From Phoronis australis (taxonomy: Eukaryota; Animalia; Phoronida), in NCBI GenBank assembly GCA_002633005.1, contig NMRA01000683.1:144057-208056 (forward strand): DNA of 64,000 bases, in the 5' to 3' direction. Numbering within the stretch: position 1 is the first letter of the stretch; the number at the start of each line of letters is the position of its first letter. Below the pieces are notes generated by a model. It worked only from the letters and a program-made list of their open reading frames with translations, was not told where the DNA came from and did no database searches. This document shows, piece after piece, positions 23 to 63,950 of the stretch. Position numbers and translations under genes: made by a program.

Positions 23-177
23 CAGGGGCGGATCCAGGATTTTGAGTTGGGGGGGCAAGTCAGAGTATTAGCCAGGTTTTTGCTCGTCAGACGTTCCCGC
101 CTCCGAAATGCCAAATAGATCTAGGCGAAATTTAGGGAGGCCATGGCCCCCTTGGCCCACCTCTAAATCCACCACTG
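23..177. mobile_element. MITE with short TIRs and 4-bp TSD (AAAG)
   Basis: Ends CAGGGGCGGAT...ATCCACCACTG, flanked by AAAG at 19-22 and 178-181. The paralogous site at ~47177-47200 is empty. Confidence 0.75.
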
Positions 178-527
178 AAAGGGTCATCTACTGAATAGTT
201 CACTATTTCATAGTTACACTGTGGCGGACAAGTATCAGTCGCAGAACAATGCAATGAAATTACAAGTATATCTCTTTAAGTTAGAAAGCAAATTGTAATA
301 ACAATGCTTTTTACGAGATTTAACACGGTTGTGTGGTTTAAATTAATTGATAATGCGATTTGTGAAGGAAAACAGTTTCTAGTTTACGGTACGTAATAGT
401 GTAAACGCGGTTAATCTTTGCAGTCCAAGACACGGCACTGGGCGTGACACGTTTTATGCCTAAATTGTTCGTCAACCGGGATAACAAATACATCATGAGT
501 ATAGCTCATTCTTTTCTATCTTTACAG

Positions 528-675
528 CAAACCCTGTGGAGGCAAACCGAGATTCCGTTGCCGCAATCGCATACACGGGGTCGCTGTCAGACTTGTACGA
601 TGCGCGAAAGACCGTCGGAGATACATTCCGAAGATGATCCCATACCCGGATGGCTGTATTTGCGAAAAACGTTGA
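528..675 (+). CDS. Last coding exon of paralog A of the secreted cationic cystine-knot-like peptide (upstream exons lie outside the window)
   Basis: Acceptor tttacag ends at 527. Phase-2 reading KPCGGKPRFRCRNRIHGVAVRLVRCAKDRRRYIPKMIPYPDGCICEKR* aligns without gaps to exon 47531-47687. AATAAA at 797-802. Not in the ORF-track frame. Confidence 0.85.
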
Positions 676-2570
676 CTAAATGCTAGGGAATTTGAATTAT
701 GAGGATCGCTATGGCTTGCTTCAGATCGCTGTCTCGTCAATAAGTTAAAATTACAGTTTGATGTACTGAGATTAAAGAGAAGCAATTAAATTTAAAAATA
801 AAGCAAAATAAGCGCACTATAGATGTTTTACGAATACATTGGATGAGTTACGTAATTTTTTGCACGAAATAGTCGAGACATTCGACAAACACACTGTGAA
901 ATAGAAAATACAAAGACAATTAGCCAGTGCAATGTTTCTATTTGCCTTGGTTTGTTGTTACTTGAGGTCATTTATGTTAAACGTCAAATGACAAGATTTT
1001 TAGAGACACCAAAATCCTCAAGATCAGTCTGATACAGTAGGGACACGTCTGCTTTGTTTTGCTTCCGCTTAATCAACGCTGAACTCTTCAAGGTAGATCA
1101 CAATTCTCAAGTAAAATATTACCATTATCGCAAAAAGCTGACACCAAACAACGATAGACGGAGTCAAGAAACGCAGACAGCAGACGAACGTTTTGCTAAA
1201 AATAGGATCGATTATGGTTTTCAGTTTTCTTGAGATATCAAAGTTCTGAGCATAAATGTATACTGCACAATTATGGCAAAACGTTTTTCGCTTGATTTGA
1301 AACGGGTTTTGGCAGAGTTTTGATGGATACGTTATCGATGTAATTCACCTATTTCTGAAGGCCCAGATCAAATACAGCAGCCCTTTCACCGTGACCATAC
1401 GTAGGAATTTTCATCGGTAAATTTCTTGCCCTTAGTTTTCGGAACTTGCACATGATAATTTTTTCCATCAAAACACTGCACACGATTCCTGAACTGCAGC
1501 TCTACCGTGAATGCATTTGTGATATACTTTTCTGTATTACACTACATGTATGTGTTTTATGGCAATTCTCATGGCCTTACACAAACTCTATGGAATAAAT
1601 GTTATCACTGTAAGAACTGCGGGCACGGTGCTTCACATAATGTCGCAGTAACTCGTGTGCAGACACACCCATCAATACTTGCATGAAAACACAAACGTTA
1701 AACATCACAAAACAGCCAACAACCTTAAGTTTTGTTGTTTGCTATCCCTTATTTTACGATTTTAGTCTATTTTAACTGTTTGGATTAGAAAATAGGAGGC
1801 ACTTCGAGAGCCAGCGCAAAATGTTGAATATTTTCAAGAAACGCGTATGTTTTTAAAAATCGTCAAAATTAATATTTATTTTTGACACTTGAACTGAACA
1901 AAAATCGTGCGCAGCATGCTAGTTTCCAGCGACAGTTGATAATAGGTTATTTTTATGACTAGAGTCTTGTGGTACAACAAAATGTAAGAGAATAGTTAAA
2001 TAAAGGCACATGGATAACATCAGCCCATGGGAGCCGAGAGCAGTTCAAATTCAAGACTCGTGCGTGATAAGCCAATATAGAGGCTGCTAATAACTATAAC
2101 CTACGCATAAGAAATTAGGGACCAGGCCAAAAGTAAAAAGCTGGTATATGGTAGAAGAGGCCATTTACTCACATAAATGTATTGAACGAAAGAAACACCA
2201 TTTATGTTCGACACCTGGACTGAACAAAAATCATGCGTCGCAACTCGTTTCCAGTGATGAAAAGGAGACCGCAAGTTGGCGAAAATACATGTACAGTGTA
2301 GCTTCATTTATAGCTGGCAGACTATCAGGCGTCAAGTGAAAGCACGTGGTCCGAGAGGAATTTAAAGGGAACATTGACGGGTGTCGAACGGATTTAGAGA
2401 GATTAATTCGACGCTACTCTCTGGAAATTACCGAATGCCCAAAAGACCGCGCTGCAAATTGAGGGTGTTAAAGCTCTATCTGGCACACTACTGTGCGAAG
2501 CTCATACATTTATTTTGGCTATTTGACTAAATTGGCAATGCATTCCACCCGGTAGCTACTGGCTGCAAGC

Positions 2571-28205: not shown

Positions 28206-28440
28206 TGTGACGGGACGTTCGTAAAATGTAACAGAGCAAGTCTCCACTGAGCATCAAAAATGTGTATTTCACTTCATCAGGTATACGCTCAGTTCAGTTA
28301 CACATGATAACGACCAGTTTCATGTTGGCAAAGGAAGGAAACACCCTTCTCCCAAGCCTGTCGCTAGCGAAGTGCCCGACACATACAGTCGCTCCGCATG
28401 CCCACGTAACAAAGGCGCACTGAGACGCAACAAAGACGTT
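28206..28440 (-). repeat. Rearranged 5' LTR: first 19 bp direct, then ~214 bp inverted
   Basis: 28206-28224 equals the start of the 3' LTR. 28227-28440 is the reverse complement of 32822-33035. Confidence 0.9.
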
Positions 28441-29128
28441 CATTGAGGGGCAGTGCCGCTGAATTGCTTGAATCTGATTTGTCTGTAAACGAATTGCTTG
28501 GTAAGTTAAAGTCTAGATACGGTGATGTGTTACCTGTTGGAAAAATTGTTGAAAAATTCTACAGTTCTAGACAGGATAAAAATGAAAGCGTTACCGAATG
28601 GGCTGCGCGCTTAGAGAAATTAGTAGTTCAAAAGAAAATGTCCAAATCATGCTCTATTCCGAAAGAGGCGCTGCCAGCTGTGCTAAAATCACATTTTGTG
28701 TCTGATTTGCTGTCGAATGACGTCAGCGTTGGTCGAAAGCATTTTGTGGAACGCAATAGTGAGGAATCATTTGACGAGCTACTGATTTGCGCCCGTCGTT
28801 TAGACACTGAGTTCAGCAGAAAATCGCAGTCACATCACTCTCTTGATAGTGGTGATAAAACTGGTAAAATGGTCACTATGATAGATGCTTTGGCTAAAAG
28901 AATAGAGAAACTTGAAGGTAGTTTCACTCGAAATAGGTCCAATGTAGTTTTCAACGCGAACTCTAAGTTCCGCGGACAACCCTATGGTAATGTGAACTGG
29001 CAACGTTCAGAACAACAAGGTATTGGCCAGTCTACTGATGTGCGGGCTGACAACTCTTTACCCAGATTTGACGGCGTTTGTTTCCGGTGGCATAAATACG
29101 GTCATAGGGTTGCCAATTGCACGGTTGC

Positions 29129-29191
29129 TTTAAACTTCAATCGGTCGTCGACGGGGGGGGGGGCTTCCGACCGAACGCATGGAAAGCCCCC
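29129..29191 (+). promoter_or_regulatory. -1 programmed ribosomal frameshift signal (slippery heptamer plus H-type pseudoknot) at the gag/pol junction
   Basis: T TTA AAC in the gag frame; 5-nt spacer; stem 1 TCGGTCG/CGACCGA; stem 2 GGGGGCTT/AAGCCCCC. The protease ORF is in the -1 frame. Confidence 0.8.
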
Positions 29192-32100
29192 TCAGTAGGC
29201 TTAGTAGGGGAGTCCTTTGAAAAGGAATTTATGATTGCAAATGTGAGATGTATATGTTTACTCGATACAGGTTCTAGAGTAAGTACGATCTCCGAGAGCT
29301 TGTGTCAGCATATTGGTTTGTCTGTGCTGCCTATTTCAGATATTACTGGACCTTTGTGTGTTGAGTGCGCTAACGGAAAAGTTTTGCCTGACAAGGGTTA
29401 TGTTAGTGTCACTGTTGGAGTACCCGATACCGATGAGTCAATTGATGTTTTGTTTTTGGTTGTTCCAAACAATTCTTATAATTTCAGTGTTAATGTTATA
29501 GTGGGTACTAATGCTTTGCGTGTTTTGATCGATCTCGTTGATAATGACGATCGCTCGGACTGGTTGCTGTTGTTGAAAAATGTTATGTTTAATCGTGAAA
29601 CCTCTCTTTCAGGCGTTGTTAAGACTGACATACCTGTTACCATTCCGTCTGGAATGTCCCATCGATGCTTGTATTTGTGTTAACCCATGTACATCTTGTA
29701 GTTTACAGGTTGTCACCGAAGAGTATGGTTCACTGTCACTTCCTAGTAACTTGCAGGTGTGGCCCACATTGCATGAGATTAACCCTGGGGATCATATGAT
29801 TCAGCTGAGAATTCTGAGGAGTTCATAATAAGCCCAGATTTAAGTATTGAGCAGCGCAGCCGAGCCGAATGATTTGGATCTTGGTCATGTTACTCAGGCT
29901 CAGCATAAGATACATTGACAAGGGATGCTCCTTTTAAACACCGACATCGCTCTATTCCTCCTAACATGTTGGATGAAGTTAGAGCTCACTTAAAGGATAT
30001 GTTGCAACTGGGGGTTATCAGACCGTCCACTAGTAAATATGCTTCTAGTATTGTCTTAGTACGTAAGAAGTCTGGAGAGTTGCGATTTTGCTTAGATTTT
30101 CGTAAATTGAACGAGATCACGGTAAAGGATGCTTATGCTTTGCCTAGTGCGACTGAAAATTTGCATACGCTCCATGGTTCTCAATATTTTGCAACTCTTG
30201 ACATGAAATCTGCTTATTTGCTAGTAGATATAGCAGAGGAAGACAAGCATATCGCGGCATTCACTGTAGGTCCACTCGGAGTGCAATAGACTTCAGTTTG
30301 ACTTAACCAATGCTCATGCAACGTTTCAACGAGTGATGGAGATGTGTATGGGGGACTTGTATTTGTCTGAGTGTTTGATATTGTTGGATGATATTTTGGT
30401 GTTTAGTGATACATTTGAGAATCATCTAACCCGATTGAGAAATGTGTTTCAACGCGTATGTGAGTTTGGTATGAAACTTAAACCGTCAAAATGTGAGTTC
30501 TTTAAGCAGCGAACTGTGTATTTGGGTCACGTGATTTCTCAACAACGGGTCGAATGTGATCCCGATGAGATAGAGGTTGTGTTGGATTGGCCTAATCCAA
30601 AGTGTGTGAAAGACTTGCAAAGTTTTTTAGTTTTCGTTGGGTTTTATTCAAGACATTGCATCAATTGCTCAGCCTCTTCATGCACTTACAAAGGGAGTAA
30701 CGGGTCGTAAACGTAATTCTTCTGATACCTCAAATGGACTGTTTGTTTGGGGTGATAAAGAAGAGTATGCTTTTGAAGAACTTAAACTCAGGTGCACGAG
30801 TAGCCCTGTACTGGCATTTGCGGATTTTACGCAGCCATTTTCTGTGACGCCAGCATGACGTTGTTAGGTGCGGTATTATATCAGGAGTCGGGGGGATTGA
30901 ATAGACCCATTGCCTTTGCGAGTCGTTGTTTGAGTGAAGCCGAGAAACGTTATCCTGTACATAAACTTGAGTTTCTGGCTCTTAAGTGGTCCATAACGTC
31001 TAAGTTTCACGATTACCTATACGGCGGTTTGCCGTTTGTAGTGTACACTGACAATAACCCTGTTACATATGCATTGTCTACAGCTACTCTGGATACAGGC
31101 TCTCAGAGGTGGGTTTCTGAGTAAGCGAATTATAATTTTCAGATTGTGTACAAGACTGGTAAGTCGAACTTAGACGCTGACGAGCTGTCAAGAATAGTGT
31201 GGCCTGATCACGGCCAGGCTTTGCTTTGTGGTGTTACGACACGTAGTGGGTTGGACTTTTCGTCGTCATTCCCTACTCTAACAAACGCCGAATTAGTGAA
31301 TTTACAACGTAATGATATTATTCTTGGTGGGGTGATGGAATGCTTGCGAGCAAAACGTAAGCCTGATGACACCGCAAATAGCGGTGTACGGAAATATTTG
31401 AAGTATTGGAGTGATCTGTACTTAGATCGGGAATGCTGTTCATAAACAGGGTCTCTTCAGTTGATAATGAAGTTGTTAGTATGTTAGTTGTGCCACAGTC
31501 GCTACGAAGTGAGATTATGGTGTCTCTGCGCACGATGCAGCTGGGCACCAAGGGTATGAGAGAAAATTTTCTTTGATTAGCAATCGCTACTTTTGGGTAG
31601 GCATGCAAAAAGATGTGGCAGACTATTGCAAATCATGTGCGAGGTGTCAAATTTCTAAGGGTCCATACAAGAAACCGAGGACTACCATGAGTCACTTGAC
31701 TGCATGTAGACCCAATAAAGTGTTAGTCGTTGATTTTACTGTTCTAGAGCCGTACAGTGACGGTAGGGAAAACGTCTTCTTGGTGATGACTGACGTATTC
31801 ACGAAGTTTACGCAGGTTGTTGTGACACGCAATCAAACTGCCCTAACTGTTGCCAAGGCTCTGACTGAGCAATGGCTCAATAAGTTCGGTATTCCGGACA
31901 GGATTCATCATATAGCGATCAGGGTCGCAATTTTGAAAGCGATTTGGTTAAACAGTTGTGCAAATTATATGACATTCAGAAATCCCGTACAACCCCATAT
32001 CATCCTGAGGGAAATTCACAGTGTGAGCGTTTTAATCGCACATTGCATAATCTGTTGAAAACTTTGCCAATTGATCACAAGCGTAAATGGCCGCAGTTTG

Positions 32101-32747
32101 TGCATGATCTGGTGATGTCGTATAATTCTACTCCACACAGCACTACTAAGTACTCTCCGTTTTTCTTGTTCTTTGGCAGGGAACCGAAATTTCCTTTGGA
32201 TTTTCCCCTGCGGTTTGATGCAGCAAATCCGGCATACTGTTGCACAGATGAGTATGTAAAGTTAGAGCAGATAAAATGAAAGACACTTGGCAGCGTGCTC
32301 GGTATTTTACTGACACTTCGAATGATAGAAATAAAGCTAGAAATGATACACGTGCGTTCGCCCAATCACTTCCGGTTGGTGCAACGGTATTTCTGAGAGA
32401 ACTCAGTATCATAGGGAGGAATAAAATTCAGAATGCATTTGGTTCAGTTCCTTATTGTATTGTCTCTCGGAGAAATAATGTGTATTCTGTGCGGGCGGCA
32501 GATGGTGCCGGACCGATTAAAACTGTAAATAGGTCGGACATCTTGAATGGTAGGGACTTGGTAGGTCTCTAGTATTTGGAGTTTTGCTGCTGTTGAGAGC
32601 GCGCCAGGCGTTGTCGTGCTGAAAGTGGAATGTGCGTTGTGATGTCTGTAGCCAGCGAGGAGTCTGAATGATTTCCATTTCACTGCGTTTTGTTTTCATA
32701 TTGTATGTTAATGATGTCGGGACGACATTTTTTGTTAGTGGGGAGAT

Positions 32748-33035
32748 TGTGACGGGACGTTCGTAACTTTACGCTTATTGTTATTCTTATTTATTTGCAA
32801 ATGTTCAGTTATTCCTATGCTAATGTCTTTGTTGCGTCTTAGTGCGCCTTTGTTACGTGGGCATGCGGGGCGACTGTATGTGTCGGGCACTTCGCTAGCG
32901 ACAGGCTTAGGAGAAGGGTGTTCCCTTCCTTTGCTTACATGAAATTGATCGTTATCATGTATAACTGAACTGAACGTATGCCTGATGAGGTGAAATACAC
33001 ATTTTTGATGCTCAGTGGAGACTTGCTCTGTTACA
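32748..33035 (+). repeat. 3' LTR (288 bp) of the Gypsy element
   Basis: TGTGAC...GTTACA immediately after the polypurine tract. Confidence 0.92.
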
Positions 33036-44083: not shown

Positions 44084-44147
44084 ACCCTGTATAAGCAGTA
44101 GGTGCACACAGTTGACAACAACCCCTTGTTGTGAATACCTGAGCAAC

Positions 44148-47100
44148 ATGAAGCGTTTGGTAAGATTAGCTGGCTGCTTAAAGTCATTAGTGAAGATTTT
44201 GAGAGTGCAGTGCAACCGTTTTTGTAATGCCATCAACATTTTGTTTTTAAGAAAATATCTTAATTGGCGTAGGTGGTCATTTAGTAAAGGTTCCGTTTTT
44301 ATAGACAGTTTCTGCCTTCATGTTTGTGTTTTGTTATTGAGTGATTTGTAAGAAATTTTATTTATGCCTACTGGGAGTTATCAGTTTCACGTTAAAATGT
44401 GAAAATATACCGGAACACAGAGCTAATCACCCTGTAAACGTAGACAGTTTTAAAGAGATCGCTCGGTGTTTTAAACTAAGTTGATGTCTCTCTAATAGTT
44501 AGTGACATTCCAACTTCTTCGTCTGTGTTCTCGTGCAGATTAGACAGACAAAATAAAATTGTCTCTCTCTCTTTACCAAGACCTACCTAGTGATAAATTG
44601 AACACCACAGTAATGTTTTAATGAGTAGGCTAGTTTTTCCAATCTAAGTTGCCTCTCAAACCAAATGTTAAAGAGCAGAGCCCAAATTCATGAAAATTCA
44701 AGTTTGCCATCTGTTTCACCATCAGCTGTGATTTTCAACTAAGTCACAAAAACAAAATTACCTGCAATTAACGAGACTCAAGCCCAAACCACTTCCCAAC
44801 CTATTTTTCTTGTTAAGGGATGTAAACCTATCTGTACATTCATTTCCGTAATATCAGTCCCCTACATTTAGGTTCTAGCATGTGTGTTCCTCGCCGTGTG
44901 CGGGACACTGGTGTTTGCAGTGGATGACAACCTCGAGGAAGAAATCGAGTACACGGACGACAACTCCGTCGACGAAAAAGAGCTCACAGACGACAATTCG
45001 ATAGAGGAAAAAGAATTCACAGACGAAACCGACGGTGATGAAGCGGAACAGCAAGTGGACGAAAAGGAAGAAGAGCCTGATTTGGAGGTGGAATCTAAAG
45101 GCGTCCGCTGCCGCACGAGAAGGATCACTATTCGGAGGTTCAACTGTTACGTAATTCGCGGCCGACCTATCCGTGGTAGAATTTGCACTCGTCTTACCAA
45201 TGGGTAAGTACGTTCGTATTTCTTTCGTCATGCTCATGTTGCAGTTTTGTAAAATGATGGAAATCCAAGGACCTTCAAATCTTATAGCTTTTTCTGATGA
45301 TTTAAAAGCTAATGTTTACAACGCTAACATTTCACAGAAACTTTAGAACAAATCACTTTAGTTCAAAATGACGTATTCACGAAAAAGTTGAAGAATAACA
45401 ATATGGGACGGTGGTGTACCTCGAGGTACATAAGTTAATAAGTCCACGAATCAAAGATTGGATAGATTTGAAATAACCTCAAGCGTATACCTAAAAAAGG
45501 TCTAAAGCCACTGTTCGGGCCTGTAAGTCCCTCAAAATGAGGCGAGTCCTAGTAGAAATAATGGCGGTTAATTACCGGCGGACAACTGGGGCTGGGGGTA
45601 TATAGCCCTCCTTTTTTCAGTGCTGCATCGCCCAGCTATTAAGAAAGTATTTGGAGTTGCTTTGAGTAGAGTCCACTCTTCTGGCTTCTGTTGTTTTACT
45701 TTAAAGATTTTGCTTCAAATACTCGTGACCATCAGACAAATGGGAATTGTCAAAATTCTGTTTCGCAACGGCATAGTTTAGTCAAAATTTCTCGTCTTCA
45801 GAGGACACGAGCCTTTGGAGTCGTGTATTCACTCTGGGACCGAGATAGTCGTGAATACGTGACTTTGGGAAGAAGATTTCAATCCATTTTCGGTCATTTT
45901 AGAACCCGGAAATTTATTCAGAACCAAAACAATGGCTTCGTTGAGTTTCTTCATTAGTGAAAAACCCACTGAGTGTACTTTCTGGAACGTATGTATTTTT
46001 GTCATGTTCTGAGCTTTTCTTGGACCAGTTTGTGACTTAGACGAGAGCAGCCAGTAAAACTGTGGCCTTAGCACAAGAATTTTAAAAGTAAAGTAGAAGC
46101 GTTAGTAAACTGAGAAGTAACCCAACACCGGCTAATGAAGTTGGCACCTCATTTCAGTTCTCTCCTTGAATTGAGCAGTCTACTGAGATGTCCCTCCTTT
46201 TCTGATCTTCGTGTCGCATAGACTATTTCCAACGACGTCGACACTCGGATCCATCAGGCGACGCGCAATTGCAAGATTATTGCTTTAAAATGCCGAGTTT
46301 TCGCGTACCAAGTGATATACGAATAAGACCACTGTGAAAGTACCTGTACCGTTCTTGATGCACGTGAAAATTTGACTTAAAACATGGTCACGTGACAAAA
46401 ATAAAGACACAGGAGTAAGAAGCATATTTTTAGAATCCTCAATCTTTTTACTTTCAGCAAGTATATAATTTAATGGTTAAAAAAACGTTAGTTCATTTGA
46501 GCTCCAACTGTTTTGATTTCTGGTCTCTCCCTCACAATGCATTTCGACGTCTATCCGCGCAGTCTGTTCTCCACCTGTGTTACCCGACTGGAATATTGTG
46601 GATATTTGTCTTGCGAATGGTTTGGTGACAATAAACCGAAACGTCGATTGATATAATGCATTTTTACATATGCGCTGATTTTGCAGTTCGTTCCCAATTT
46701 TTGGCATAAAACAAATGTAAAAGATAACTGGTCGTTCACTTTTGTAATTTTATTAGCGGTTACCGGTATGTGGACACCGATAATGTAAACCACAATACTC
46801 CTGATGGTTGATACTCTAAATACGGTTTGCGTATCTTTTAACATACGGAAATTTCAGAGGAACGAAACGTCAGTGGGTCAAATGATAAAACAAATATTGA
46901 CCAATCCCTTAGGCGTATGAGATCACGTAGACCTCAGTAGGATAACTTTGCTCTATCTTGGCTCATGCCTGATATGACCTTCGATATAGGTTCGGTGACA
47001 TGATACCATGGTATCATGTCACCGTCACGGTCGAGATCGGTCCTTTTGTACATCATCATTTTTAGTACATTGGATTAAAGTGAACCTCAGGATTATACTG

Positions 47101-47687
47101 AACCAGTGACGTGAAAATGATATAGGAACACAAAATCCCATTGTACCAGAATACATTTTGCAAGAGTGTCTTCAAAGGCTAGAGAAAGGGCCATCTACTG
47201 ATCAGATCACTACTTTGCTGTTACGGTGTGACGGACAAGTATCGGTTGCAAAACAATGCATGAAATTACAAGTACATTTCTCAGCAAACAAATTGTGGTA
47301 GCAACACTTTTTCTACTAGACTTAACACGGTTGTGTGGTTTAAAAAACTTAATGATGCGATTTGTGAAGGAAAGCGATTATTTAGTTTACCGTAGACGCG
47401 GTTAATCTTTTCAGTCCAAGACGCGGCACAGTGCGTGACACGTATTACACATGTACTGTATGTCTAAATCGTTCGTCAACCAGGGTAACAAATACAACAT
47501 GACTATACCTCATTTTTTTCTTTTTTACAGCAAAAGCTGTGGAATCAACCCACTGTACCGATGCCGCACTCTGTTAAGGGGGTTCGCCACCAGACGTGTA
47601 CAATGCTTGAGAAAAGGTTGCAGATCCATTACTGCGAGAATCCCGATTCCGGTCGGCTGTGCGTGCCGAAGATTCTTCAAAGGCTAG
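44148..47687 (+). CDS. Secreted prepropeptide, 166 aa: signal peptide, acidic pro-piece, Arg-rich Spaetzle/neurotrophin-like cystine-knot domain. Exons 44148-44159, 44872-45203, 47531-47687
   Basis: GT-AG introns with matching phases (0 and 2); 12+332+157=501 nt. MKRLVLACVFLAVCGTLVFA|VDDNLEEE...EVESK|GVRCRTRRITIRRFNCYVIRGRPIRGRICTRLTNGKSCGINPLYRCRTLLRGFATRRVQCLRKGCRSITARIPIPVGCACRRFFKG*. TATA upstream; AATAAA at 47791-47796. The fold call rests on Cys spacing only. Confidence 0.9.
46993..47024. repeat. Perfect 32-bp palindrome in intron 2
   Basis: cggtgacatgataccatggtatcatgtcaccg is its own reverse complement. Confidence 0.95.
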
Positions 47688-49197
47688 GGAAGTTAGAATT
47701 ATGAGAATCACCATGGCTTGCTTCAGATCGTTGTCACTTCAATAAGTTTATTTTAGTTGCCAGTTGGATGTTCTGAGATTAAAGAGAAGCAATAAAATAT
47801 GATATCAAAAGAAAATAAAGTCACTTTTGATTTTTTAAGAATGCATGTGCTAAGTTACGTAAGTATCTTCATCAAGTAATGGAGACATTTGATTCGTCGA
47901 CAAACACGCTGAAAAATTGAAAACGCAAAGACAATTAGACAATACGAATGTTTCCATTTGTTTTGGTTTGTTTTTACATGAAGTCATTTATATTAAACGT
48001 ACCCGTGGTGGTCATATGACGAGATTTTTAGAGACGCCAAAATCATCAATATCACTGTCTGATACAGTAGGGACACATATGTTTTGTTTCGCTTCCATTG
48101 AACCAACCCTAGACACTTCGAAGTCGATTTCAAATCCCAAGTAAAATATTGCTTTTATCACAAAAACCCGACACCAAACAACGATAGAGGGATTCAAGAA
48201 ACGCAAACAGCAGACAATCGTTTTGCTAAAAAAAACATCGATTTTAGGTTTCAATTTTCCAGACACATCTTAGTTTTGAGTATAAATGTATTGCGCAATT
48301 ATGGCAACACGTTTTTCGCTTGATTTGAAATGGGTTTTGGCAGGGTTTTGATGGGGACGTTGTCGATGTAATTCACATATTTCTGAACACCCAGATTACA
48401 TATAGCATCCCGATCACTGTGACCATGCGCAGCAATGTATATCGGTAAATTTTGGCCCTTAGTTTTTAGAAGTGAGAATTTTTTTTCCATTAAAACACTG
48501 TACACGATCGTGAAATACAGTTCTTCCGACCTACTCTTCTGTATTACACTACATGTAAGTATTTCATGGCAACTCTCATGCCCTTATACAAACATTATGA
48601 AATAAATGTTATCACTGCATGACCTGCGGTCACGGTGCTTCACATAATGTGGCAGTAACTCGTATGCAGCTATACAACTATACTTCCATGAAAACACAAA
48701 CGTTAAACGTCAGAAAACAGCCAACAATCCTACGTTTTGATGTTCATTAGCCCTTATTTTACGATTTTAGAATAAACAATTGTTTGGAATAGAAACTGTG
48801 AGCTACTTCAGGATTCATCACACAATGTTGATTTTCAACAAACACTTATATTTTTGAATATGCATGTTAGACGATTTGAAAATCGTCAAAATTAATACTT
48901 ATGCTTGACACTTGGACTAAACAAAAGTCGTGGGTCGCTTGCTTGTTTCCGGAGATGGAACTGAGACCATAGGTGATAGCAGGCTATCCATTATGACTAA
49001 ACTAGTGGTACAACACAATGTAAGAGAATAGATAAATAATAATGAAATCATATTATCTTTGGAAAGATAGCTAATAAAAAGTTCAAAGCAGAGGAACGAG
49101 AAAACCATAAGATAAGGGGTGGAATGGGGCTAAATGTTTGAGAGAATTCGCACGTCATGTTACATGATCAACGAATTATGCAGTGGAACAAGTTGTA

Positions 49198-50442
49198 ACT
49201 AGAAAGATTATTGTCACGGCGTGAGAATAACGGACTCTGCGCGTGCGAATCACTGGAATTATTATGGGAAGTTAAGGACAGCAGCCCATTTATCAATATG
49301 AAAAGGAATTCTTGAAAATTGTAGGAGATATTACATATTAATTTTTTGATGACCTTTCCACCAATTGACCTCTTCCGGTGCATTATGAGACACGATGAAG
49401 GAGTAATTGTTAACTCGATTAAAAGTGTGGTTAATGCTAATAATCACAGATGTTTTACTTTAAGCACTTGAGAATACAAGATGAATGAAGTGGTCAAACT
49501 TTCAGAAGAAAAATGCACCTAATGACCCCATGGGTGCATCAAATGACCTGAAAATTTAGAATTCAAACTCAATCGCACTTAGTAAACAGATATGTAATTT
49601 TGAAGTCTCTAGGTCAAAATTTTAGTTTGCACTCAATGACCTTTGATCTATTTTTTCTGATTGGTTAAGCCTATTGCGAAGTAAAGTAGGGTATTCAATT
49701 GGCATGTTGACTTACAGCAGTGCGCTGAATTTGAAAAGAATTCCTTGAAAAACGTAAGAGATATAACAATTTAAACGTTACATGACCTTTCCACTAATTG
49801 ACCCTATCCGGTGCATTATAAGCGTCTTTAGGAGAATTACTGCAAAGCCCATCAAAAATGTGTTTAATGCTGAGAATCACAGCTGTCTAACGGTTGACGC
49901 ATCAAAATACTTCCTGATTGAAAGGGTCAAATTTTCAGAAAGAAAAATGCACCCAATGACCCCATGTTTGCACTAAATGACCTTAAACTTTGGATTCCGA
50001 TTTGATTTACCTGTGGCAATCAGACCTGTCAATTTGAAGTGTCTAGCTCAAAATTTTAGTTTGCACCTAATGACCTTCGACCTATTTCACCTGATTGGAT
50101 GACCCGATTACTTAGAAAAGTAATTTTTTAAATTGTCATGTTCACTTATACCTGTGCACCGAATTTGAAAAAGATAGCTTTAAAACTGAATTAAGAGTAG
50201 CATTTTGAAAATTATATGACCTTTGCACCAAACGACCTCTTCCGGTGCAATATGGAATATGATTACATAACTAATCAAAATTTATATACTGTCATATGCT
50301 AAATTTAAAGACCGTACCTGCACCCAATGTGGAGTTATTAAGTCTCAAAGTTGGTCGGAAGAAGAATAAGAATAAGAAGAAGAATACAATTGAAGAAAAC
50401 CAGGAACAACAATACTCTGCGTTTACACGCGCAGAGTAATAA
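49198..50442 (-). mobile_element. Helentron/HINE-like non-autonomous repeat, copy 1
   Basis: On the - strand: hairpin tactctgcg...cgcagagta, (TTATTC/TTC)n microsatellite, ~440-bp internal subrepeats and a CTAGT end. Absent from duplicate A. Confidence 0.55.
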
Positions 50443-50562
50443 TACCAAAAAACTCCTAAGTGCACGTGACAAACATCAACCTATGGGAGCCTAGAGAAGA
50501 CCAAATTCAAGACCCGTTGGCGGCAAGCCAATAGAGAGAACGGTAATAACTATAGCCTTCAA

Positions 50563-51840
50563 ACTAGAAAGATTATTGTCACGGCGTGACATTAACGGAC
50601 TCTGCGCGTGCGTATTACTAGAATTATTATGGGAAGTTACTGACAGCAACCCGTTTACCAATATGAAAAGGGATTCTTTAAAATTGTAGGAAAAATTACA
50701 TATTAATTTTTTGATGACCTTTCCACTAATGGACCTCTTCCGGTGCATTATGAGCGCCGATGAGGGAGTAATTGTTAACTCGATTAAAACTGTGGTTAAT
50801 GCTAATAATCACAGATGTTTTACTTTAAGCATTTCAGAATACAAGATGAATGAAATGGTCAAACTTTCAGAAGAAAAGTGCATTTAATGACCCCATGGGT
50901 GCACCAAATGACCTGAAAATTTAGAATTCAAACTCAATCGCATTTAGTAAACAGATACGTAATTCTGAAGTCTCTAGCTCAAAATTTTAGTTTGCACTCA
51001 ATGACCTTTGACCTATTTTTCTGATTGGTTAGGCTTATTGCGAAGTAAAGTAGGGCATTCAATTGGTATTTTGACTTACACCAGTATGCTGAAATTGAAA
51101 AGAATTCCTTGAAAAACGTAAGACATATAACATTTTGAACGTTACATGACCTTTGCACTAATTGACCTTATCCGTTGCATTTTAAGCATCTTTAGGAGAA
51201 TTATTGCAAAGCCCATGGAAAATGTGTTTGACGCTGAGAATCACAGTTGTCTAACGGTTGACACATCAGAATACTTGCTGATTAAAAAGGTCAAATATTC
51301 AGAAGAAAATGCACCTAATGACCCCATGTTAGCACTAAATGATCTGAAACTTTGGATTCCGATTTGGTTTACCTCTGGCAATCAGACCCGGCAATTTGAA
51401 GTGTCTAGCTCAAAATTTTAGTTTGCACCTAATGACCTTTGACCAATTTCACCTGATTGGATGACCCGATTACTTAGAAAAGTAATTTTTTAAATTTTCA
51501 TGTTGACTTGTACCTGTGCATCGTATTTGAAAGAGATAGCTTTGAAACTGAAGGAGTAGCATTTTGAAAATTATATGACCTTTGCACCAAACGACCTCTT
51601 CCGGTGCAATATGGAATATGATTATATAACCAATAAAAATTTATATACTGTCAAAAGTCATATGCTGAATTTAAAGACCGTACCTACACCAAGAATAAGA
51701 AGAATAAGAAGAATAAAATTGAAGAAAACCCAGGAACAACAGTACTCTGCGCTTACACGCGCAGAGTAATAACAAGAATAAGAATAAGAATAAGAATAAG
51801 AATAAAATTGAAGAAACAACAGTACTACGCGCAGAGTAAT
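50563..51840 (-). mobile_element. Helentron/HINE-like non-autonomous repeat, copy 2
   Basis: Highly similar to 49198-50442 with the same actagaaagattattgtcacggcgtga end; (AAGAAT)n at ~51775-51805. Confidence 0.55.
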
Positions 51841-52304
51841 AAGAAATTGGGGACCAGGCCAAAAGTAAAAAGTGATGTTGGGTAGGAAGAGTCCCAGTTA
51901 CTCACATGAATGTACTGAACAACTGAAACACCATTTATGTTCGACACTTGGACTGAACAAAAATAGTGCATCGCAGCTCGTTTCCAGAGATGAAAAGGAG
52001 ACCGCAGGTTGGCGTAAATGCAAGTACAGTGTAGGTCATTTATTATGGGCAGATTATCAGGCGTCAGGGGAAGACACGAGGACCCTGAGCGAACAAAATG
52101 GAAAATTGATGGGTTACGAACAGATTTGTTCGGAGTAATTTGACGGTAGTCACAGGAAATTACTGAATGCCCAAGGGGCGCTGCAAATTGAGGGGCTACA
52201 TGATCTGTCTCCAGCTCCCTTTGGCAGACTACTGTGTGAAGCTCAGATATGGCTATTTGACTAAATTGACAATGCATTCCACCCGGTAGCTACTGGCTGC
52301 AAGC

Positions 52305-52849: not shown

Positions 52850-54350
52850 AGGCGATTGCCACCTAAAGAGCAACCTGTTTTGTATCAATTTAGATCAATA
52901 ACAGCAACTTCAGTTGTTTAACCTGACACCTAACGGCAGACGGAGGTGTTGAAATTAACCAATGACATATTCGGTTCTAACGCAGTCTGTTCAGCCGTTC
53001 ACAACACGCTTACTGGTGTCAACTTATCGCTTGAGTTCATCGTTGTACATCAATAAATCATCAAAATTCGATGACACCCCTTACAAATACATCGACTTCT
53101 TGAACAAACGTGTTGTTTTATCTCACTGTCATTTGAACGTACCGTAGCCTACAGAGTTCGGCAGGCCAATTTCCCGTGGTTGATCGCGGGAGTTTTTATG
53201 TTAGGGGATAAATTCGAATCATTCTTCCGTGAAATACAGACGGGGGAACATAGCTGTGATTTTTTTCAGTTCTAAACACACCTAACGCTTGTTACTCTCC
53301 GCCAGTGGCTCGGAACCCGATCAGGCCTGTCGCGCCGCCGGGACTGTACGTCACAAACAGAAACCAGCCTTAGTTAAAAACTAAACCTCCAGTAACGATA
53401 AAACTATAATAGTGAGCCAAAAAATAATGTGCACGTAATTATTTAGGTGAATTTTCCACCAAACTTAAAATCTACTCACTGGTCGGGGGCCGCGAAGTCA
53501 GGTTCCCCTTCCACCGAACCGTCAGGGCAAAGGTTGTACAGTAACAATGATTTGAATAATGCATTTGTATATCTAAATAAAGATTCCCCTAACATGTGAC
53601 CACATCATATAAAAACCAGTTATTAATTGTTTCACAACAGCTTTCTGTCAGCAAACACTGAATTAGCATGCGCTCACACGGCCTCGCTGCCCGGTCAATT
53701 ACTTTTCATGCATCTAAAGCCGGTAACGCAGTGGTTTATTATTGCTGGCTTTTCAAAACATTTCCACTCTGGAATACTCCAAAAGCATTCCAAATTGTAT
53801 ATAATGAAACGAACTTTGTTTCAGTTTTATATAATGAAACGGACTTTGTTTCAGTTTTACATAAGCATTGGTTAGGGTGAGAATAATTTATTTTGAAAAA
53901 GAACGCAGAATAATAAGCGTCTACATGGCACAGGCAACAGAAGATATGGATAGTTCTTTGGTAAGACGGAATTCGTCAGAGAAATCACTGTCGACGAAAT
54001 GCCGGCCACTGACACGGAGATGTTGCATGGCCTCATACTTGCTATTAACAGCGCACTTTTCATTATTCACTACCGCGAGCCACTTCCTAAGCATTTCAGG
54101 CTCTCGAGGAAGAGAAAAAAAACGATATACCCGCTTTCTTCGCAGCTTCATAGTTCGGACAAGCGGGAAGGATGCACCCCAATATAGAGCAGCATTCACT
54201 CTGCAGATGAACACTGACGTCGTTTCTCACCTTCCTCACAGGTTAACGCGACACCTCTCGGCAAGGTGAGGTCGACCGTATCAGAGCACGATGTGAATAT
54301 AGACCGATTAAGACGGTAAAAAGACTAATTAAATCGGGTGGCATTCTCCT
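52850..54350. mobile_element. Internally deleted Kolobok-like element with THAP relic
   Basis: Ends AGGCGATTGCCACC / GGGTGGCATTCTCCT. THAP-like FFSLPREPEMLRKWL...LRVSGRHF on -. The paralogous position in copy A is an empty TTAA at ~3819-3822. Confidence 0.8.
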
Positions 54351-55428: not shown

Positions 55429-57630
55429 CTAAAGTTCACTAAAGTACTCCTCAGGAGTGTGGAAAGTGATGCCAACTTTCTCGGCGAACAATTTGTCCGA
55501 GTTGCTAAGATCTCCGGGTCTCCCTGCGGCGTCTCCAACATACACCGCAGTGGACGGGTCAATGGTCTTGAACTGATTCAGTCTGCAGCTGTAAGAATAT
55601 TTTGTGTATGTTAATGGTGTGTAGCACTTTATCGACTGGTCTAGGTATTTCTAGGTATCAAACAAAATATCTGAAAAACTATATATTTTAATACAAAAAG
55701 TATACAGTTTCCGAAAATAGAAAGCCTGTGGAACTTGCTTTTTGAATTTACATGTACATCAATCTGTCATTACTTGGGTCACGTGAATACAAACAACATT
55801 ATCAACTACAATATCAAAACTCATTTGACTTAAATGTTTCTGATAAAATCTCAAAACGGTGTGACAGTTTTCTTAATTGTCATTTCGTTTTCGTTTTATA
55901 CATCTGTTGATTTTTTTTCTTAACCATCTGTAAAAGTCATAATCGGAATATCCCATCTTGCAAAAGTGAAGAATTTTAAAGCCAATCAAATACCGTGTTA
56001 GAGAACAGCGTAAATACGATCAGCTATTTCTGTGATATGATGTTTCGACATTTGCCAAATTTGGACATTTTCTATTGCCCTACATAATCGTAAGCCACGT
56101 AGGACATTTATTTTCTATTTACATAACTGTGGATGTAGGTATGGAATTCAACCATGTAAAAGTACACATTTTCTGAAAGTAGAAAACTTTTAGAATTTGA
56201 TATTTTACGTAATGTTAATATGCTCTTAATTGGACCGCATCTTTTTACTGATATTTACAAAAGGTGAAAATACTTTTATATCAAAAAACCCATAACGAAC
56301 AAAGAAACTTCCGTCAATATAAATATTCGATGTGAAATCACCAAAACACCAATACAGCTATCTAAACAGTCTTACCGTTTTCGTCTTATTTTGATTTCAT
56401 TTTGCTTCCTAAACATTTTGAATGTCCCAATTTTGATGATCTTTCAAGGCAAAATATAATGCATAAAAATAATTTGTAACAGAATTTTAGAGAACAGTGC
56501 AGAATCCGATTTGAATTCGATCAGTCATCTTTGAGATATGATGTACGACGTTAGCCACTTTATCTAATGCCTCACGTGACCTTAATATTCAATGGATGAA
56601 ACGGGATATTTAAAGGTTCATAGTCTCATTAAATTGTGAATATGGAAGTGAAATGCCAATCGCAATCAACCACGGTCCTCCTCCATCATCAGAGATCCAG
56701 TTACTATTACACTGTACAATCTTGCGAATTTCATTATCAAATAACGATTGCGTGATAATTGGAATTGCTAGTTTTCAATATGTGCACAGTTAGTTATTTT
56801 TAACGTGTATCAGTTGAAGTGTTTTCTATAACAAAGCAATTTTTACAAATTGTTTCTTTTTTGGATTTAGCTGTACACACAGTTCTCCAGGACGTCATTA
56901 GGTGGTGCTTGATACAAATTCAAATATTCGTGGTTTTAAAGAGACAGGGCATCTGTAAGTTAACTATGAACTATTCTTCCAGACGATCCTCAATAAGATG
57001 AGACATATTTAAGCACACTCGCTGTGTAGCATTATCATGAAAGTGGTTGCAAAATGCTATACTGTACAGTAGTTATCAGTATAACATATTCCATGTGTTT
57101 GTTAGTCAAAATTTAACGGAAACGCCGTCCAGTAGACAGCAAATGGGCCAAAAAAGGCCTGCACAAGATAACATTTTCCATGCCTGTAATATGTCCACAT
57201 CCCGGTGTCAGGCTTACGAAGATCGTTGTACTCTGTGGCGCCTAGGACAAACATGGGTACACCCAGTTCATTCGTGATGGCTTCAATCTTTGACATCCAC
57301 TCGTCTTTATTCTGAGAGCCGCTCCCGATTCCGGCCTGCAACAAATACGTAAGAGAATGATCAACAACCTACAAATCTTTGAACAATCTCCGGCTTGAAT
57401 TTACTGCAAAATCGTTTAATTCCGTACTTAGGCGTTACATGGTGGTACTGTGCGTAATAGCGAAGGAAAGGCCCGAAAGGCATTTAATTCAGCCATTGAA
57501 TGCGACCCCTACGTGAATCGTTTATAGCAAAAAACCCATCCGGAAATGGAATACGCACATTTGAAACGGCCACGTAGGGGACTCTTAAACTTAAAAAAAT
57601 CCGTTTGGCTTCGGCCTAATATAGATATAT

Positions 57631-57669
<39 letters not shown>

Positions 57670-60600
57670 CATTGAAAAGTAAATGTACAGTGTTTTATTT
57701 ACTATTTCAACTGCCATCTGAAGAAAGACATTTATGTAGACAATACGAAAGTTTGTTGAACAAGCTATCTAATGCCAAGAACAGCTTACTTACAATGAAA
57801 CATGTATAAAAGAAGGTCTGCTACCCAAATACAAAGATTTTTGTATATCTATATGCATATATGGTTCTAACAATCATATTCTTTTGCAAATTACAGAGTC
57901 GCTTGAATATAGCGTGGAAATGAACGTACGTCTGAATGTTTTACCTGGTTGCTCATAATAACGTTACTGATGCCTCTCTTGTGATTGTCTTGTATTTTGA
58001 GTTTGACATTTTCGGATGTGAATGTCCAGTCTTTTTCATCGACAGGGAAATCTCTTCCACTTTTCGTCTTACTAATGGTATTGTCCAGATCAAAAGACAC
58101 CACGTGCTCATTTGAATAAATCCGCCTATTCGTTTCGTAGTAGAGAAGACCGTTGGAGAGCTGTGTCCACCAGCCAGGGAGGGTGTTGAGCGGGGGATAT
58201 TCACGAGAGAAGCGACGACCTGAGCTCCAAAACACAGTCTCGAGGAGAAATCCGGCCAGCTCCTCATACCAGTCAGTGTCTGGGTTGGCAATCATCGAGC
58301 CCGTGCGGAAGAATGCCGAAGATCCCGGGTGGCGGGCGACCACTTTTTTTGTCGCGTAGTAGTCCACCAATGGAAGTGCTAGGTCAGGCTCTTTGTAAAT
58401 CCACTCACGTTTGGAGTCATCCACATATACAAGTATGGAGCATATCTCCGGCTGACAGTTCAGGGTGAAGCAGTGCTCAGACCCACGAACCCTGTTATGT
58501 ACGCACAAGTTGGTATTAAGCAACAGCTGGCAGTCAGAGACACAGTAACATTCTTAGCTATTTGGCATTATCTTTTAATTATTGGAATACAGTGGCTTAT
58601 TGAATATAATTTTCTCTTTTTCTTGGCAAATCACATGCGGAACGTTAGAAAGTTTAGTTAGCAATAGCTTGCAGGAGGGGAAATAACGTGCCCAAAGTAT
58701 TGAACGCACGAAACTTTGTTTCTCAAAGCACACTCTTGACTGAAAATCGTGTTTAATTCCTGTTTTCTACATCAGGTGTCACAAGCTTTTCAAGATTATG
58801 CAACGAGCATCTCAAAACACAACAGATGAAAGTATGTGCATGATATGTTCGTGTCTACTAAAACAGCATACGATTTGTCCACTTAGTTTAACTCCCAAAT
58901 GACGATCTACCTGAGTTTGTCCGAACTATCTTATTATACCATGCTTTTCCATATTTAGCCTGCTCATGTAAAAGAGCTGCGAACATACCTGCCGCCTTCT
59001 CCCTTCCATGAACCAGCTTTCGCCCATAATGCATCGGGATCGACACCTGAGAAAGCTTGGCACCACACGGCAAAAACGTAGGGGGATACCTTATGCTTTG
59101 GAGTCGGCTCTTTTGGATCGGGAGTTGCTTCTGGTCTGTTGAACTTGGGGTAACCTTCAGCATTGCAACCGTCTTTTGGATCAGTTCCCAATGTAGCCAC
59201 AGCTGCTAAGTCTGCAATTTCACGCTCATTGGTGCCTTCGTCGCAAACAAAGGACCATTTAACAATCAAAGCTGAAGTATCTTTCCCTGTTGAAATCCAT
59301 TCAGAGGACACCGACACATTCATGCAATTTGAAGCTGATTTCACAGAGCCCATGTCTATAGTTGCATGACCAGGAGGTAGTTCGGACTCGAAGGCAGTTT
59401 TTTCTCTTGGAATTGTTAAGTCTTTACGAACTGCCACGTTTACGTATTTCAGATATTGGAACTTGAGCATGTCTGCCAGTTTTTCACCCATAGCGAAAAG
59501 AGTAGCGGATGGATTTCCGTCGGTTTGTGTTGCGAAGGCTGAGGCATCACATACTCTGAGATTAGAAACTCCTCTCACTTGTAGAAACTCATCAGCACAG
59601 TCTGGCATTTTGCATGTACCGACAGGGTGAAGTGCAGACACCAGCATTCCACGCAACCATGTGTTCAGCTTGTCGTCCGTATCTATATCCATTCCCGGCT
59701 CAATTTCCCCCAAAATCAGGTCTTTCAACTCTTTCCTAACATTTTTTCCAAAGAACATACTGCGCAACACGTGAATTTGATCTCGATAAAACTTAGAGAC
59801 CTTCTTGAACGATTCTGTTGGTACTCCATCATTAGTGTATTCCCAACCATACTCTACCTCCGGCTTGTCGAATATGTTTGAAGTAAGTGCTTTGACATGG
59901 CCGCGGTACTCAGGCCACTGATCGATGACACGAATAGTACCTAAAGCAGTCAAAGTAATGTTTTTTCTCAGAGGTATACATCATGATTAAATCACTTAAA
60001 TCACAATGTGAAGCAGCACTGTCTTTCATTTTGCTATCAAAATCAATTTCCAATAAATATATGCATATACATATTTAAAGATGTATTTTTATGCTTCTAA
60101 TCATGCTTATGTTAAGAAAGAACTACGTTAATTAAAATGCAGTTGTATTTACTGAAAACTTGTAAATGTGAAAACCAAAAATCCTGCAAATAGGTAACCC
60201 GTGCAGTAATTACGTATATCGGTGGCTCACTGACATAGCCCGTAGCATGTAGTGTTATTCCCCAGCACCATGTCATGAAATTTAATCACTGGACGAGGCT
60301 AGGTGAATTGAGGTGGATGATTTTCGTCGAAAAACTCGTTCTTAAACACATTTGGAAATTTCTAACCTACGTCATATTCAAGTTGTCACTGCAAGTTGTG
60401 TTTCTAACTAGATTGGCCAATTATTACAAAGATAAGGACTTAAGCTATCAGTTCCACTTTACGTACTTGGTTTGAACACAGAATTTTGTCAAATACACTT
60501 TGGTGGAGACACACACGTCTAAATTTCGGCGTATTTCTCAGTCCGCCAAAGAGCAAAAATACAGCAGACGACCAAGAGACATTGAATTGATACATGGAAA

Positions 60601-61249: not shown

Positions 61250-63950
61250 ATGGTACTCTGCGCATACTAGCGCTGAGTGTAGTCATTCTCGGGTTTTTAT
61301 CTTTTTCTTTTTATGACTCCCCGTACAAGAACAGATTCTTTTAGTCCTGGTTTTTTAAATCTTTTTTCTTCTTATTACCCTGCGCGTACAAGCGCTGAGT
61401 CTTGTTATTCTCGGGTCTTTACTTTTTTGTATTATTATTATGCGCGTCCTAGTGCAGATTCTTGTATCTCTTGAGTTTTTATCTTGTTTCTTATTATTTT
61501 TCATGTTTATTGTGATATAGTCAATACAATAAATATACAGACCCAGAAAGGGTGAAGAGGCATTGTATCTGGGCTAAACAGTTCAATACAATGAAATCTT
61601 TATACAATTACGAACATGTGTGCTCCCATCTTAGAAGATGATGGGGCTCGAATTTTTTAGAGTGTTGAGTTTTTAATAAAGAAATAAAAAACGGAGTACG
61701 TTCAGAGCTATGAATTGCTCTTAACTTCATAGTGGACTTTTGTCGTATTTTCTACTGTATCTCTGTGGCAAACCTATTTGCCCACATAGCCAAATGGATG
61801 ACTCATTCGAGCTCCCGAGCTCCCCTCCACCCTTAATGCGCGTATGATACACACATAAATTAATTGATAAACTAAGATTAAGATTACAATGCTATGTTCT
61901 AAATGTAAACATTAGTACGAATATAATGGAATCATTTTTTTCGTACTACTCTGCGCGCACCAGTTTTAGAGAATATCGGGTCATCTAATCAGATTAAATA
62001 GGTTAAAGGCCATTGAGTGCGAAGTAAGGTTTTGAACTAGACATTTTAAATTCACAAGTTTGAAACGTACATGCAATTCTCAAGTTTTAGATCATTTGGT
62101 GTCACCATGGGGTTATTAACAGCATTTGTCTTCTAAAATTCCTACTTCTTCATTCAACACGTAATCTGATTTGTCAACAGTTAGACAATTGGGATTCTCA
62201 GCATTAATAACTCATTCGCGGATACTTCTAGTGAAAGTGTTTACATGTAAGATGTAGAATATGCCAGAAATTGCAAATGTCATCTCAACTTAAATTTTAA
62301 AATAGACACTTCAGATTTGTTCTTGAATGCTGATTCCGAAGCTTCGTGTCATTTGGTGCAATCATGCGGTCATTAAGTGCATTGTTTTACAGAAATTATA
62401 GCCCATTCATTCAAAATGTATTCTAAATTGCCAACAGTTAGACACTGTGGTTCTCAGCATTAACAACGCTTTTACATTCATGAACTTCACATTTATTTTG
62501 CAAGTGGGCCTCATAATCTGCCAGAATGGGTCAAAAACGTATACTACCAAAATATTTAATTTCATTCAGCCTGTATTCTTTTTTACACAATTCCCATTCT
62601 ACTGTGCCAACATTTAAGCATGTGTGACTCATCATGATTCACATTTATGCTTTCTTCCATAGTTCTGCTATGACACGCAAGCTACGTCAAAGGTTGTAGA
62701 CTTCCAAACACAATGTAGTTTCGTTCACACAGAGTCAATAATGTCACTTTCTGAATGTAATATTTCAGGTTATTGTTATTATTTTACTTTTTGACCTTTT
62801 CTGGAGCTTACGTCTTTCAAACGACTCAACTTTCAAATTTGAACTTTTGCAAGTATTTTTGAGCTATCCATAAATTTTATATATGTCATGGCTTGACTCG
62901 TAATGCACCGGAAGTGGTAAATGGGTGAAAAGGTCATCTAATCTTCAAAGTTTCAGCTTATTTGGTGCAACCATCGGATCATTAGGCGCATTTTCTTCTG
63001 AAACTTTGTAATTTTCATTCAAGATGCGTATGTATTCTGATGTGTCAACAATTACAATAATGTGGTTCCCAGCGTTAAACACACTTTTCCCGCACTTAGC
63101 AATGATTCTAGCAAAAGGGGTTATAATGTACCCGAAAGGGCCAGTTAGTGCAAAGTCATTTAATTTTGGAAATGTTATTTCTCCTACAATTTTTAAGGAA
63201 TTCGCTTCAATTTCAGCAAACTGCATAATGCCAATCAAACACAATACTTTACTAAGCAATCGCGCTATCCAATCAGATGAATTAGGTCAAAGGAAATTGA
63301 GTGCAAACTTAAATCGTGAACTAGACACATCATATTTACATATGTAGTTGACACATGTACTTGAGTTCTAATGCGAACACTTCACGCAAATTCGTGCAAC
63401 CATGGGTCATTAAGTGCAATTTTCTTCTGAAATTGTTACCTTTTCATACCACATGTATTCTGATGTGTCGGCACTAAACACACTTTTCACGGGCTTTACA
63501 ATAACTTCTCTCCAAAGCCTCATAACGCACCGGGAATTGGCAATTAGTGCAAAGGTCATTTCATTTTCAAAATGTCATTTCTCGTACTTTTTTCAAGGAA
63601 TGCTCTTCAATTTGAGCATACATGAGCAAGCATACATATCAATCAAAATAGACTATTTTTTCTAAGCAATAAAGCTATCCAATCAGACAAAATGAGGTCA
63701 TTGAGGTCAAATTTTAATTTTGTGCTAGACACTCCTGTATGCTTGATGCATGTGATTGAATTCAATTTCAAAACTTAAGGTCATTTGACTCAATCATGGG
63801 GTCATTAAGTACATTTCCTTGTGAAAAAAATTTGTTTTTATTCACCACGTAAACTACTGTGATTCTCAATGTTAACCACACTTTTCAAGGAATTTTACAT
63901 AATTCCAGTACAAGAGCAGAGCTCATAATGAGATTTATGGCACTCTGACA
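61250..63950 (+). repeat. Diverged, oppositely oriented relatives of the 49198-51840 repeat family (probably intronic)
   Basis: tactctgcgc...gcgctgagt hairpin motifs at ~61255-61470. Reverse complements of the subrepeat (catggggtcattaagtgca, ttctcagcattaa, tgcaccggaag) recur at ~62100, 62370, 62900-63150, 63400 and 63800. Confidence 0.7.

Follow-up and report, generated by a model that had tools for sequence, protein, structure and literature searches.

Gene structure and expression

The window analysed here is a stretch of 64,000 nucleotides (nt) from Phoronis australis (assembly GCA_002633005.1, contig NMRA01000683.1, positions 144,057 to 208,056, forward strand), and within it we describe a three-exon gene, hereafter the focal gene, encoding a small Arg- and Cys-rich protein probably built on a cystine knot of the growth-factor type. 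The gene is real, spliced and strongly expressed. Its coding pieces (44148-44159, 44872-45203 and 47531-47687 of the window; Table 1) join in frame to give 166 codons and a stop. The RNA data consisted of three raw runs (X1, X2 and X3) and the contigs of an older fourth run (X4) under the same species label, and the focal gene was expressed in all four. In each of the three raw runs 5' read ends cluster at 44116/44119 and reads skip both introns; 3' read ends cluster at 47789, adjoining the AATAAA at 47791, in two of the three, and in the raw runs reads from the gene are confined to one strand. Exonic read density was approximately 58, 125 and 243 per kb per million in the three raw runs, reads of 90-95% likeness having been subtracted as intron repeats; intron 2 holds repeat fragments near 45600 and 46370-46650, where both-strand reads 90-95% alike are found. 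Splicing and single-strand reads rule out a chance open reading frame (ORF) or a pseudogene. An earlier sequence-only reading of this locus had proposed a spliced gene with just four codons in its first exon, and both the gene model and the reads bear this out.

The precursor protein

The 166-amino-acid (aa) precursor comprises a hydrophobic leader (residues 1-20), an acidic pro-piece and an 86-aa cationic domain, a layout from which secretion of the product appears likely. Cleavage of the leader would be expected after Ala20. Within the pro-piece, aa 22-80 contain 30 Asp/Glu and have a charge of -26. The 86 residues past Lys80 end in Gly and include 21 Arg and 3 Lys but neither Asp nor Glu, and their 9 Cys stand at mature positions 4, 16, 29, 38, 46, 60, 65, 78 and 80; on recount this composition was exactly that given by the sequence-only reading. 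The predicted mature domain has a charge of +24 and an isoelectric point of 11.9, and the precursor as a whole is near neutral (charge -0.6). The start of the mature domain, predicted from this charge switch, would lie past Lys80, where we infer a trypsin-like cut; no convertase site occurs at the pro/mature junction of the precursor sequence, just the single Lys80. The sole R-x-R/K-R site (aa 85-88) was rejected as a processing site, as this internal R-T-R-R sits within the knot region and is lost in a variant found in run X4.

A small gene family and its divergence

The focal gene is one of a small family of at least three members. A paralog exon lies 47 kb upstream on the same strand, encodes a product with 44% aa identity, and has 15 Arg/Lys and 3 Asp/Glu in 48 aa. 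It retains Cys 38, 46, 60, 78 and 80 at identical spacing, and Cys29 is retained according to a loose-end read; the position of Cys4 falls outside the window, and all of the five knot cysteines that are observable, out of six, are retained. The paralog is without Cys65, which is unneeded for a knot, and its Cys60 therefore needs another partner, likely Cys16. A Cys60-Cys65 bond was accordingly rejected as a family trait, and is possible in the focal member, where it would leave Cys16 free. The third member is represented by loose read ends in all three raw runs (7, 8 and 9 reads). The three members end at different points and the Lys-Gly terminus is private to the focal one, such that amidation was rejected as a trait of the family; the suggestion in the sequence-only reading that the terminal Gly is an amidation donor survives as a possibility for the focal member.

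The paralog is expressed in X3 (coding depth 23-31) but not in X1 or X2 (0-1), and X1 and X2 have a second focal-gene allele that is missing from X3. Expression of the paralog in X3 only may reflect tissue, or a gene that some individuals have and others do not. X4 contigs on 44970-45202 and 47530-47809 represent a variant approximately 94-95% alike, which alters 4 of 9 displayed mature codons and no cysteine, with 7 further differences not displayed; it may come from a different population or a sister species, or be a fourth family member.

The coding exon diverges faster than its flanks. Within the duplicated block, the last coding exon is identical at 92/143 nt (64%) versus 932/1125 in the non-coding flanks (Fisher p=8e-7), the flank identity being 84% in the intron end, 80% in the 3' untranslated region (UTR) and 83% downstream, and among 26 bins the two that cover coding sequence score lowest. 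Coding differences fall 16/20/15 by codon position, and nonsynonymous and synonymous distances (dN and dS) for the paralog pair are 0.53 and 0.40, with a flank distance of 0.19. The picture is one of a post-duplication burst with constraint afterwards.

Between and around the paralogs, a non-long-terminal-repeat (non-LTR) retrotransposon fragment at 5893-8310 (+) and a mariner-type transposase at 13000-13531 (+) were recognised by eye.

Table 1. Features of the focal gene and of its upstream paralog, in window positions
Feature	Position	Strand	Evidence or remark
Duplicated block	177..2003	+	matches 47184-49039, 75% overall; intron end, last exon, 3' UTR, downstream DNA
Paralog, last coding exon	528..675	+	tblastn of window; spliced at 528; upstream exons precede window
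TATA box, TATAAA	44077..44082	+	39-42 nt ahead of 5' read ends
Exon 1, 5' UTR and 4 codons, ATG at 44148	44116..44159	+	5' ends, splice to 44872
Intron 1, 712 nt, GT..AG, phase 0	44160..44871	+	junction reads 94/158/273
Exon 2, remaining predicted signal peptide (aa 5-20)	44872..44919	+	hydropathy up to 3.3 over 7 residues
Exon 2, acidic pro-piece (aa 21-80), single Lys at its end	44920..45099	+	
33-nt tandem repeat, 2.3 copies, 80% match, lengthening acidic pro-piece	44952..45026	+	Tandem Repeats Finder (TRF)
Exon 2, start of predicted mature domain (Cys 4, 16, 29)	45100..45203	+	
Intron 2, 2327 nt, GT..AG, phase 2	45204..47530	+	junction reads 54/142/360 and one X4 contig
Exon 3 coding part, remaining mature domain (Cys 38, 46, 60, 65, 78, 80) and stop	47531..47687	+	
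3' UTR, AATAAA at 47791 and 47814	47688..47819	+	read ends at 47789, contig to 47809

Homology searches and predicted fold

All homology queries were single exons, which lowers their sensitivity. Residues 68-111 of exon 2 found no homologue in a word search, exon 3 gave 0 phmmer hits at E<=0.001 among 1.84 billion representatives, a two-sequence exon-3 profile confirmed 0 of 9 candidates, 0 of 94 pattern matches in metagenome contigs were confirmed, and Pfam recognised 0 families. A PDB sequence search returned just three rows, all of the Tie2 receptor (E 2.8-6.2), in a cysteine-rich stretch that we take to be EGF-like; an EGF-like reading was rejected, as the EGF-like tail lacks its last Cys and is missing in the other two family members. 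No description of such a cationic knot family was found in searches of open-access literature, and the family is apparently undescribed so far; a close match to a described family, which would have counted against the sequence-only reading, was not found.

In a cystine knot, bond I-IV threads a ring of bonds II-V and III-VI (PMC4079206). Cys 4, 29, 38, 46, 78 and 80 of the focal protein match the six-cysteine growth-factor order with its C-x-C end (gaps of 24, 8, 7, 31 and 1). When the mature region was shuffled, this order arose in 517/20,000 cases (2.6%), and together with a fingertip pair (16 and 60) in 26/20,000, with spacing ranges chosen post hoc, such that these rates flatter the fit. 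In the ESM Atlas, exon 3 alone resembled NGF/Spaetzle (0.80), Cys_knot (0.79), IL-17 (0.79), Spaetzle/IL-17 (0.78), an unnamed cluster (0.76) and DAN (0.76); all 10 of the 10 best family matches fall in one clan and every named row is a knot family, although scores of 0.76-0.80 are a lead only, as a third of shuffled proteins score as well according to the tool's own warning. With exon 2, the Atlas gave no usable match (recognition 1694). AlphaFold2 on exon 3 gave a predicted local distance difference test score (pLDDT) of 65 and a predicted template modelling score (pTM) of 0.38, with two of five models above 60. Strands were modelled at 44-48, 58-61, 64-67 and 78-82, and the best model is one long interrupted hairpin with its turn at mature 62-63, resembling what the second finger of a knot would form. 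Adding the paralog weakened the model, the exon-2 and exon-3 halves folded as two chains scored 0.03, and fold searches of the exon-3 half-domain model against the PDB found no match. Beta-type alternation was dominant in 7 of 10 hand-chosen windows of residues. We consider that the protein probably has a cystine-knot fold of the growth-factor type. The sequence-only reading had placed it on a Spaetzle/neurotrophin-like scaffold: the compatible cysteine order and the Atlas look-alikes are consistent with this, but membership of those families is not supported, their diagnostic residues being missing, and the structural comparison which that reading had proposed, applied to the exon-3 half, gave a hairpin model and no fold match.

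It is quite unlikely, in our judgement, that the protein is a cationic disulfide-rich defence peptide of some other fold, with cysteines that happen by chance to be spaced like those of growth-factor knots. Such a coincidence would be compatible with the shuffle rate of the six-cysteine order under post hoc ranges, with the cysteine-rich Tie2 stretch as sole PDB sequence match, and with the single exons and half-domain model giving neither a profile nor a structure match to any knot protein. However, the protein contains neither CxxxC nor CC, its EGF-like tail is incomplete and not shared by the other members, the cysteine that the paralog is missing is one that a knot can dispense with, and the Atlas matches agree on their clan without exception.

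A putative cationic defence effector

Secreted defence peptides usually combine a charge-balancing pro-piece with a polycationic product locked by disulfides, strong expression, tandem copies that are unevenly expressed and rapid coding change. Because the focal gene has a charge-balanced pro-piece, belongs to a tandem family and shows fast coding divergence, we tentatively favour, with somewhat less than even confidence, its product being a putative knot-fold cationic defence effector that would bind polyanionic microbial surfaces once cut free. It is possible, though doubtful, that the family represents an undescribed branch of growth-factor knots turned from signal into a pro-piece-shielded cationic antimicrobial and diversifying as a marine-invertebrate gene family. 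The sequence-only reading had left the choice between a cationic effector and a Toll-type ligand; the pro-piece, the tandem family and the fast divergence argue for the former, and no positive evidence emerged for the latter.

As a defence effector, the precursor would be directed by its leader into the secretory path, where the acidic pro-piece would neutralise and shield the Arg-rich domain during storage until a trypsin-like cut past Lys80 released a domain of approximately 10 kDa. This domain would be held by knot bonds Cys4-46, 29-78 and 38-80, with its two beta-fingers probably clamped by Cys16-60 and the spare Cys65 available for dimers. The freed fingers could then bind polyanionic surfaces, such as microbial walls, membranes or sulfated mucus, and the bound domain may kill, agglutinate or trap microbes, while duplicates would diverge in exposed residues under pressure from changing targets. 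The divergence itself calls for some caution: the dN/dS of 1.31, from 47 codons of one pair, is not different from 1 (p=0.43), dS of the paralog pair is raised too, and the X1/X2 alleles alter no mature residue (2 of 2 differences silent).

We regard it as unlikely that the protein is instead a divergent cystine-knot signalling ligand or antagonist (of Toll, Trk/p75, IL-17R or BMP type), with Arg-rich fingers sitting on heparan sulfate and a pro-piece that is inhibitory until cut. Its signal-pro-knot layout is the same as in Spaetzle and neurotrophins, its Atlas neighbours are all signalling families, and both copies retain two hydrophobic core sites as well as a Pro at Cys5 minus 3. The Spaetzle pro-domain inhibits signalling (PMC2586362), gremlin, sclerostin, neurturin and artemin bind heparin via basic residues (PMC6154108), and invertebrate IL-17 and Spz7/8 genes expand in tandem too (PMC8353272; PMC2772990). 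However, the diagnostic residues of each tested ligand family are missing and no homologue was found among the 1.84 billion representatives, whereas Spaetzle, neurotrophin, IL-17 and DAN orthologues are findable across phyla by sequence. An effector would also better fit the absence of acidic residues from the 86 aa, the low identity of young duplicates and the high transcript level. If the protein were a ligand, it would represent a new class of knot mixing Spaetzle/NGF, IL-17 and DAN traits; a 2009 search recovered no Spaetzle from three lophotrochozoan genomes (PMC2772990).

The least likely of the alternatives, in our view, is a knot protein serving as a structural or recognition polycation, either cross-linking acidic mucus, tube or cement or sitting on the gamete surface, with its changes driven by sexual or substrate selection. 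Such a role is consistent with the strong expression, the extreme charge and a spare cysteine that could form cross-links, the expression of the paralog in one of three runs could reflect tissue or sex, and marine invertebrates have cationic gamete-recognition proteins that evolve fast. However, the focal gene is expressed in all four runs and not, as far as visible, in one tissue alone, and the protein does not have the repetitive, Tyr- or Ser-rich composition that we take to be typical of cement proteins.

Surrounding DNA

The DNA of the window is repeat-rich and gene-poor, and its genes have introns. At 57100-59980 (-) are GMC oxidoreductase exons fused to a polynucleotide-kinase 3'-phosphatase (PNK3P) domain (Pfam E 7e-18 and 3e-12), an unusual domain combination seen in 9 of the 10 relatives found (968-1110 aa, including soft coral at 52% and mussel at 51%), all of them uncharacterised. 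Degenerate tandem units of approximately 430 nt, 67-89% alike, occupy 49197-51845 and 61975-63827 in opposite orientation at the two sites, and the one ORF tested from them had no Pfam match. A broken gypsy-type LTR retrotransposon at 28410-32572 (+) has gag, protease, reverse transcriptase, RNase H and integrase-like ORFs in several frames, identified by eye, and a 214-nt inverted match (28227-28440 / 32822-33035). A THAP domain fragment is found at 53921-54226 (-; Pfam E 3e-6).

Comparison with known cystine-knot and defence families

Spaetzle (PF16077) and the neurotrophins (PF00243) are like the focal protein in having a signal, a pro-piece and a C-terminal six-Cys order with a C-x-C end, in their widened C2-C3 loop (8 residues in the focal protein), and in hydrophobic residues at two core sites ahead of Cys5; the NGF/Spaetzle cluster was also its top Atlas match. 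In contrast to these families, the focal protein has a shorter first finger, three extra Cys elsewhere and no Pfam or HMMER match. We placed the diagnostic residues of both families by offsets from the cysteines that we take to be correct. For Spaetzle, PMC2772990 gives these as Pro13 after Cys1, an aromatic at 133, an extra Cys adjoining Cys5 and Pro136 near Cys5, and for neurotrophins as Trp130, with Gln44 common to Spaetzle. The first three Spaetzle sites are Arg, Ile and Gly in the focal protein, with no Pro ahead of mature 23; Pro75, at Cys5 minus 3, matches Pro136 and is retained in the paralog. There is no Trp in the focal protein, and its sole mature Gln, at 59, is outside finger 1. 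Neurotrophins have a basic convertase site ahead of the knot, in contrast to the single Lys80 and lack of a furin site at the focal pro-junction. With these diagnostic residues missing, membership of Spaetzle or the neurotrophins is not supported.

Invertebrate IL-17 (PF06083) shares six knot cysteines, one additional Cys close to the finger 2 tip and tandem copies with the focal gene, and the V-G-C-x-C end presumably resembles that of IL-17. Unlike IL-17, the focal protein has a long acidic pro-piece, no Trp, no Pfam match and no CPW/SPW motif, a motif that IL-17 carries (PMC8353272). The DAN/CAN and glycoprotein-hormone/bursicon knots (PF03045, PF00007) are like the focal protein in their Atlas scores (0.76-0.79) and in a second finger that is basic, gremlin and sclerostin being examples. 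The extra cysteines of the focal protein lie 12 past Cys1 and 14 past Cys4, a spacing that we take to be that of the finger-to-finger bond site in DAN/CAN and hormone knots. PMC6154108 and PMC4079206 describe an eight-membered ring with C-x-G-x-C for DAN/CAN, glycoprotein hormone, bursicon and TGF-beta knots. In contrast, the focal protein is without C-x-G-x-C, its C2-C3 gap is 8 residues, its ring would have 13 residues, and its short heel loop (7 residues) and acidic pro-piece further set it apart from DAN and hormone knots.

Among defence systems, horseshoe-crab coagulogen is activated by proteolysis and has a role in clotting and defence, but is larger, has many more disulfides and forms a clot; PDB searches found no sequence match to it. 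The likeness is that of a Spaetzle-like knot, predicted here and present in coagulogen outside signalling (PMC2586362). Centrocins and strongylocins, antimicrobial peptides of marine invertebrates, are like the focal gene in having a signal, a pro-piece and a faster-changing cationic mature part in a small family, and for sea-urchin centrocins PMC4805251 reports that the mature part changes faster than the pre-pro regions. The focal mature part is, in contrast, approximately twice as long; its 9 Cys follow the growth-factor order, and it has no cysteine motif in common with theirs. Arminins and alpha-defensins are presumably similar pre-pro antimicrobial peptides. Inhibitor knots and beta-defensins have an adjacent CC, and CS-alpha-beta defensins and macins a CxxxC helix motif; defensin, macin and inhibitor-knot motifs were rejected for the focal protein, with neither CC nor CxxxC present. 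By its sequence features, the protein is likely to stand on a knot scaffold yet outside every named family. Known cysteine-rich antimicrobial peptides have defensin, inhibitor-knot or hairpin folds, and growth-factor knots act as signals, the exceptions to our knowledge being coagulogen and certain growth factors of venoms. If the defence reading is true, the focal family would provide a new effector scaffold, a cytokine fold turned weapon, with a hormone or cytokine scaffold doing the job of a defensin.
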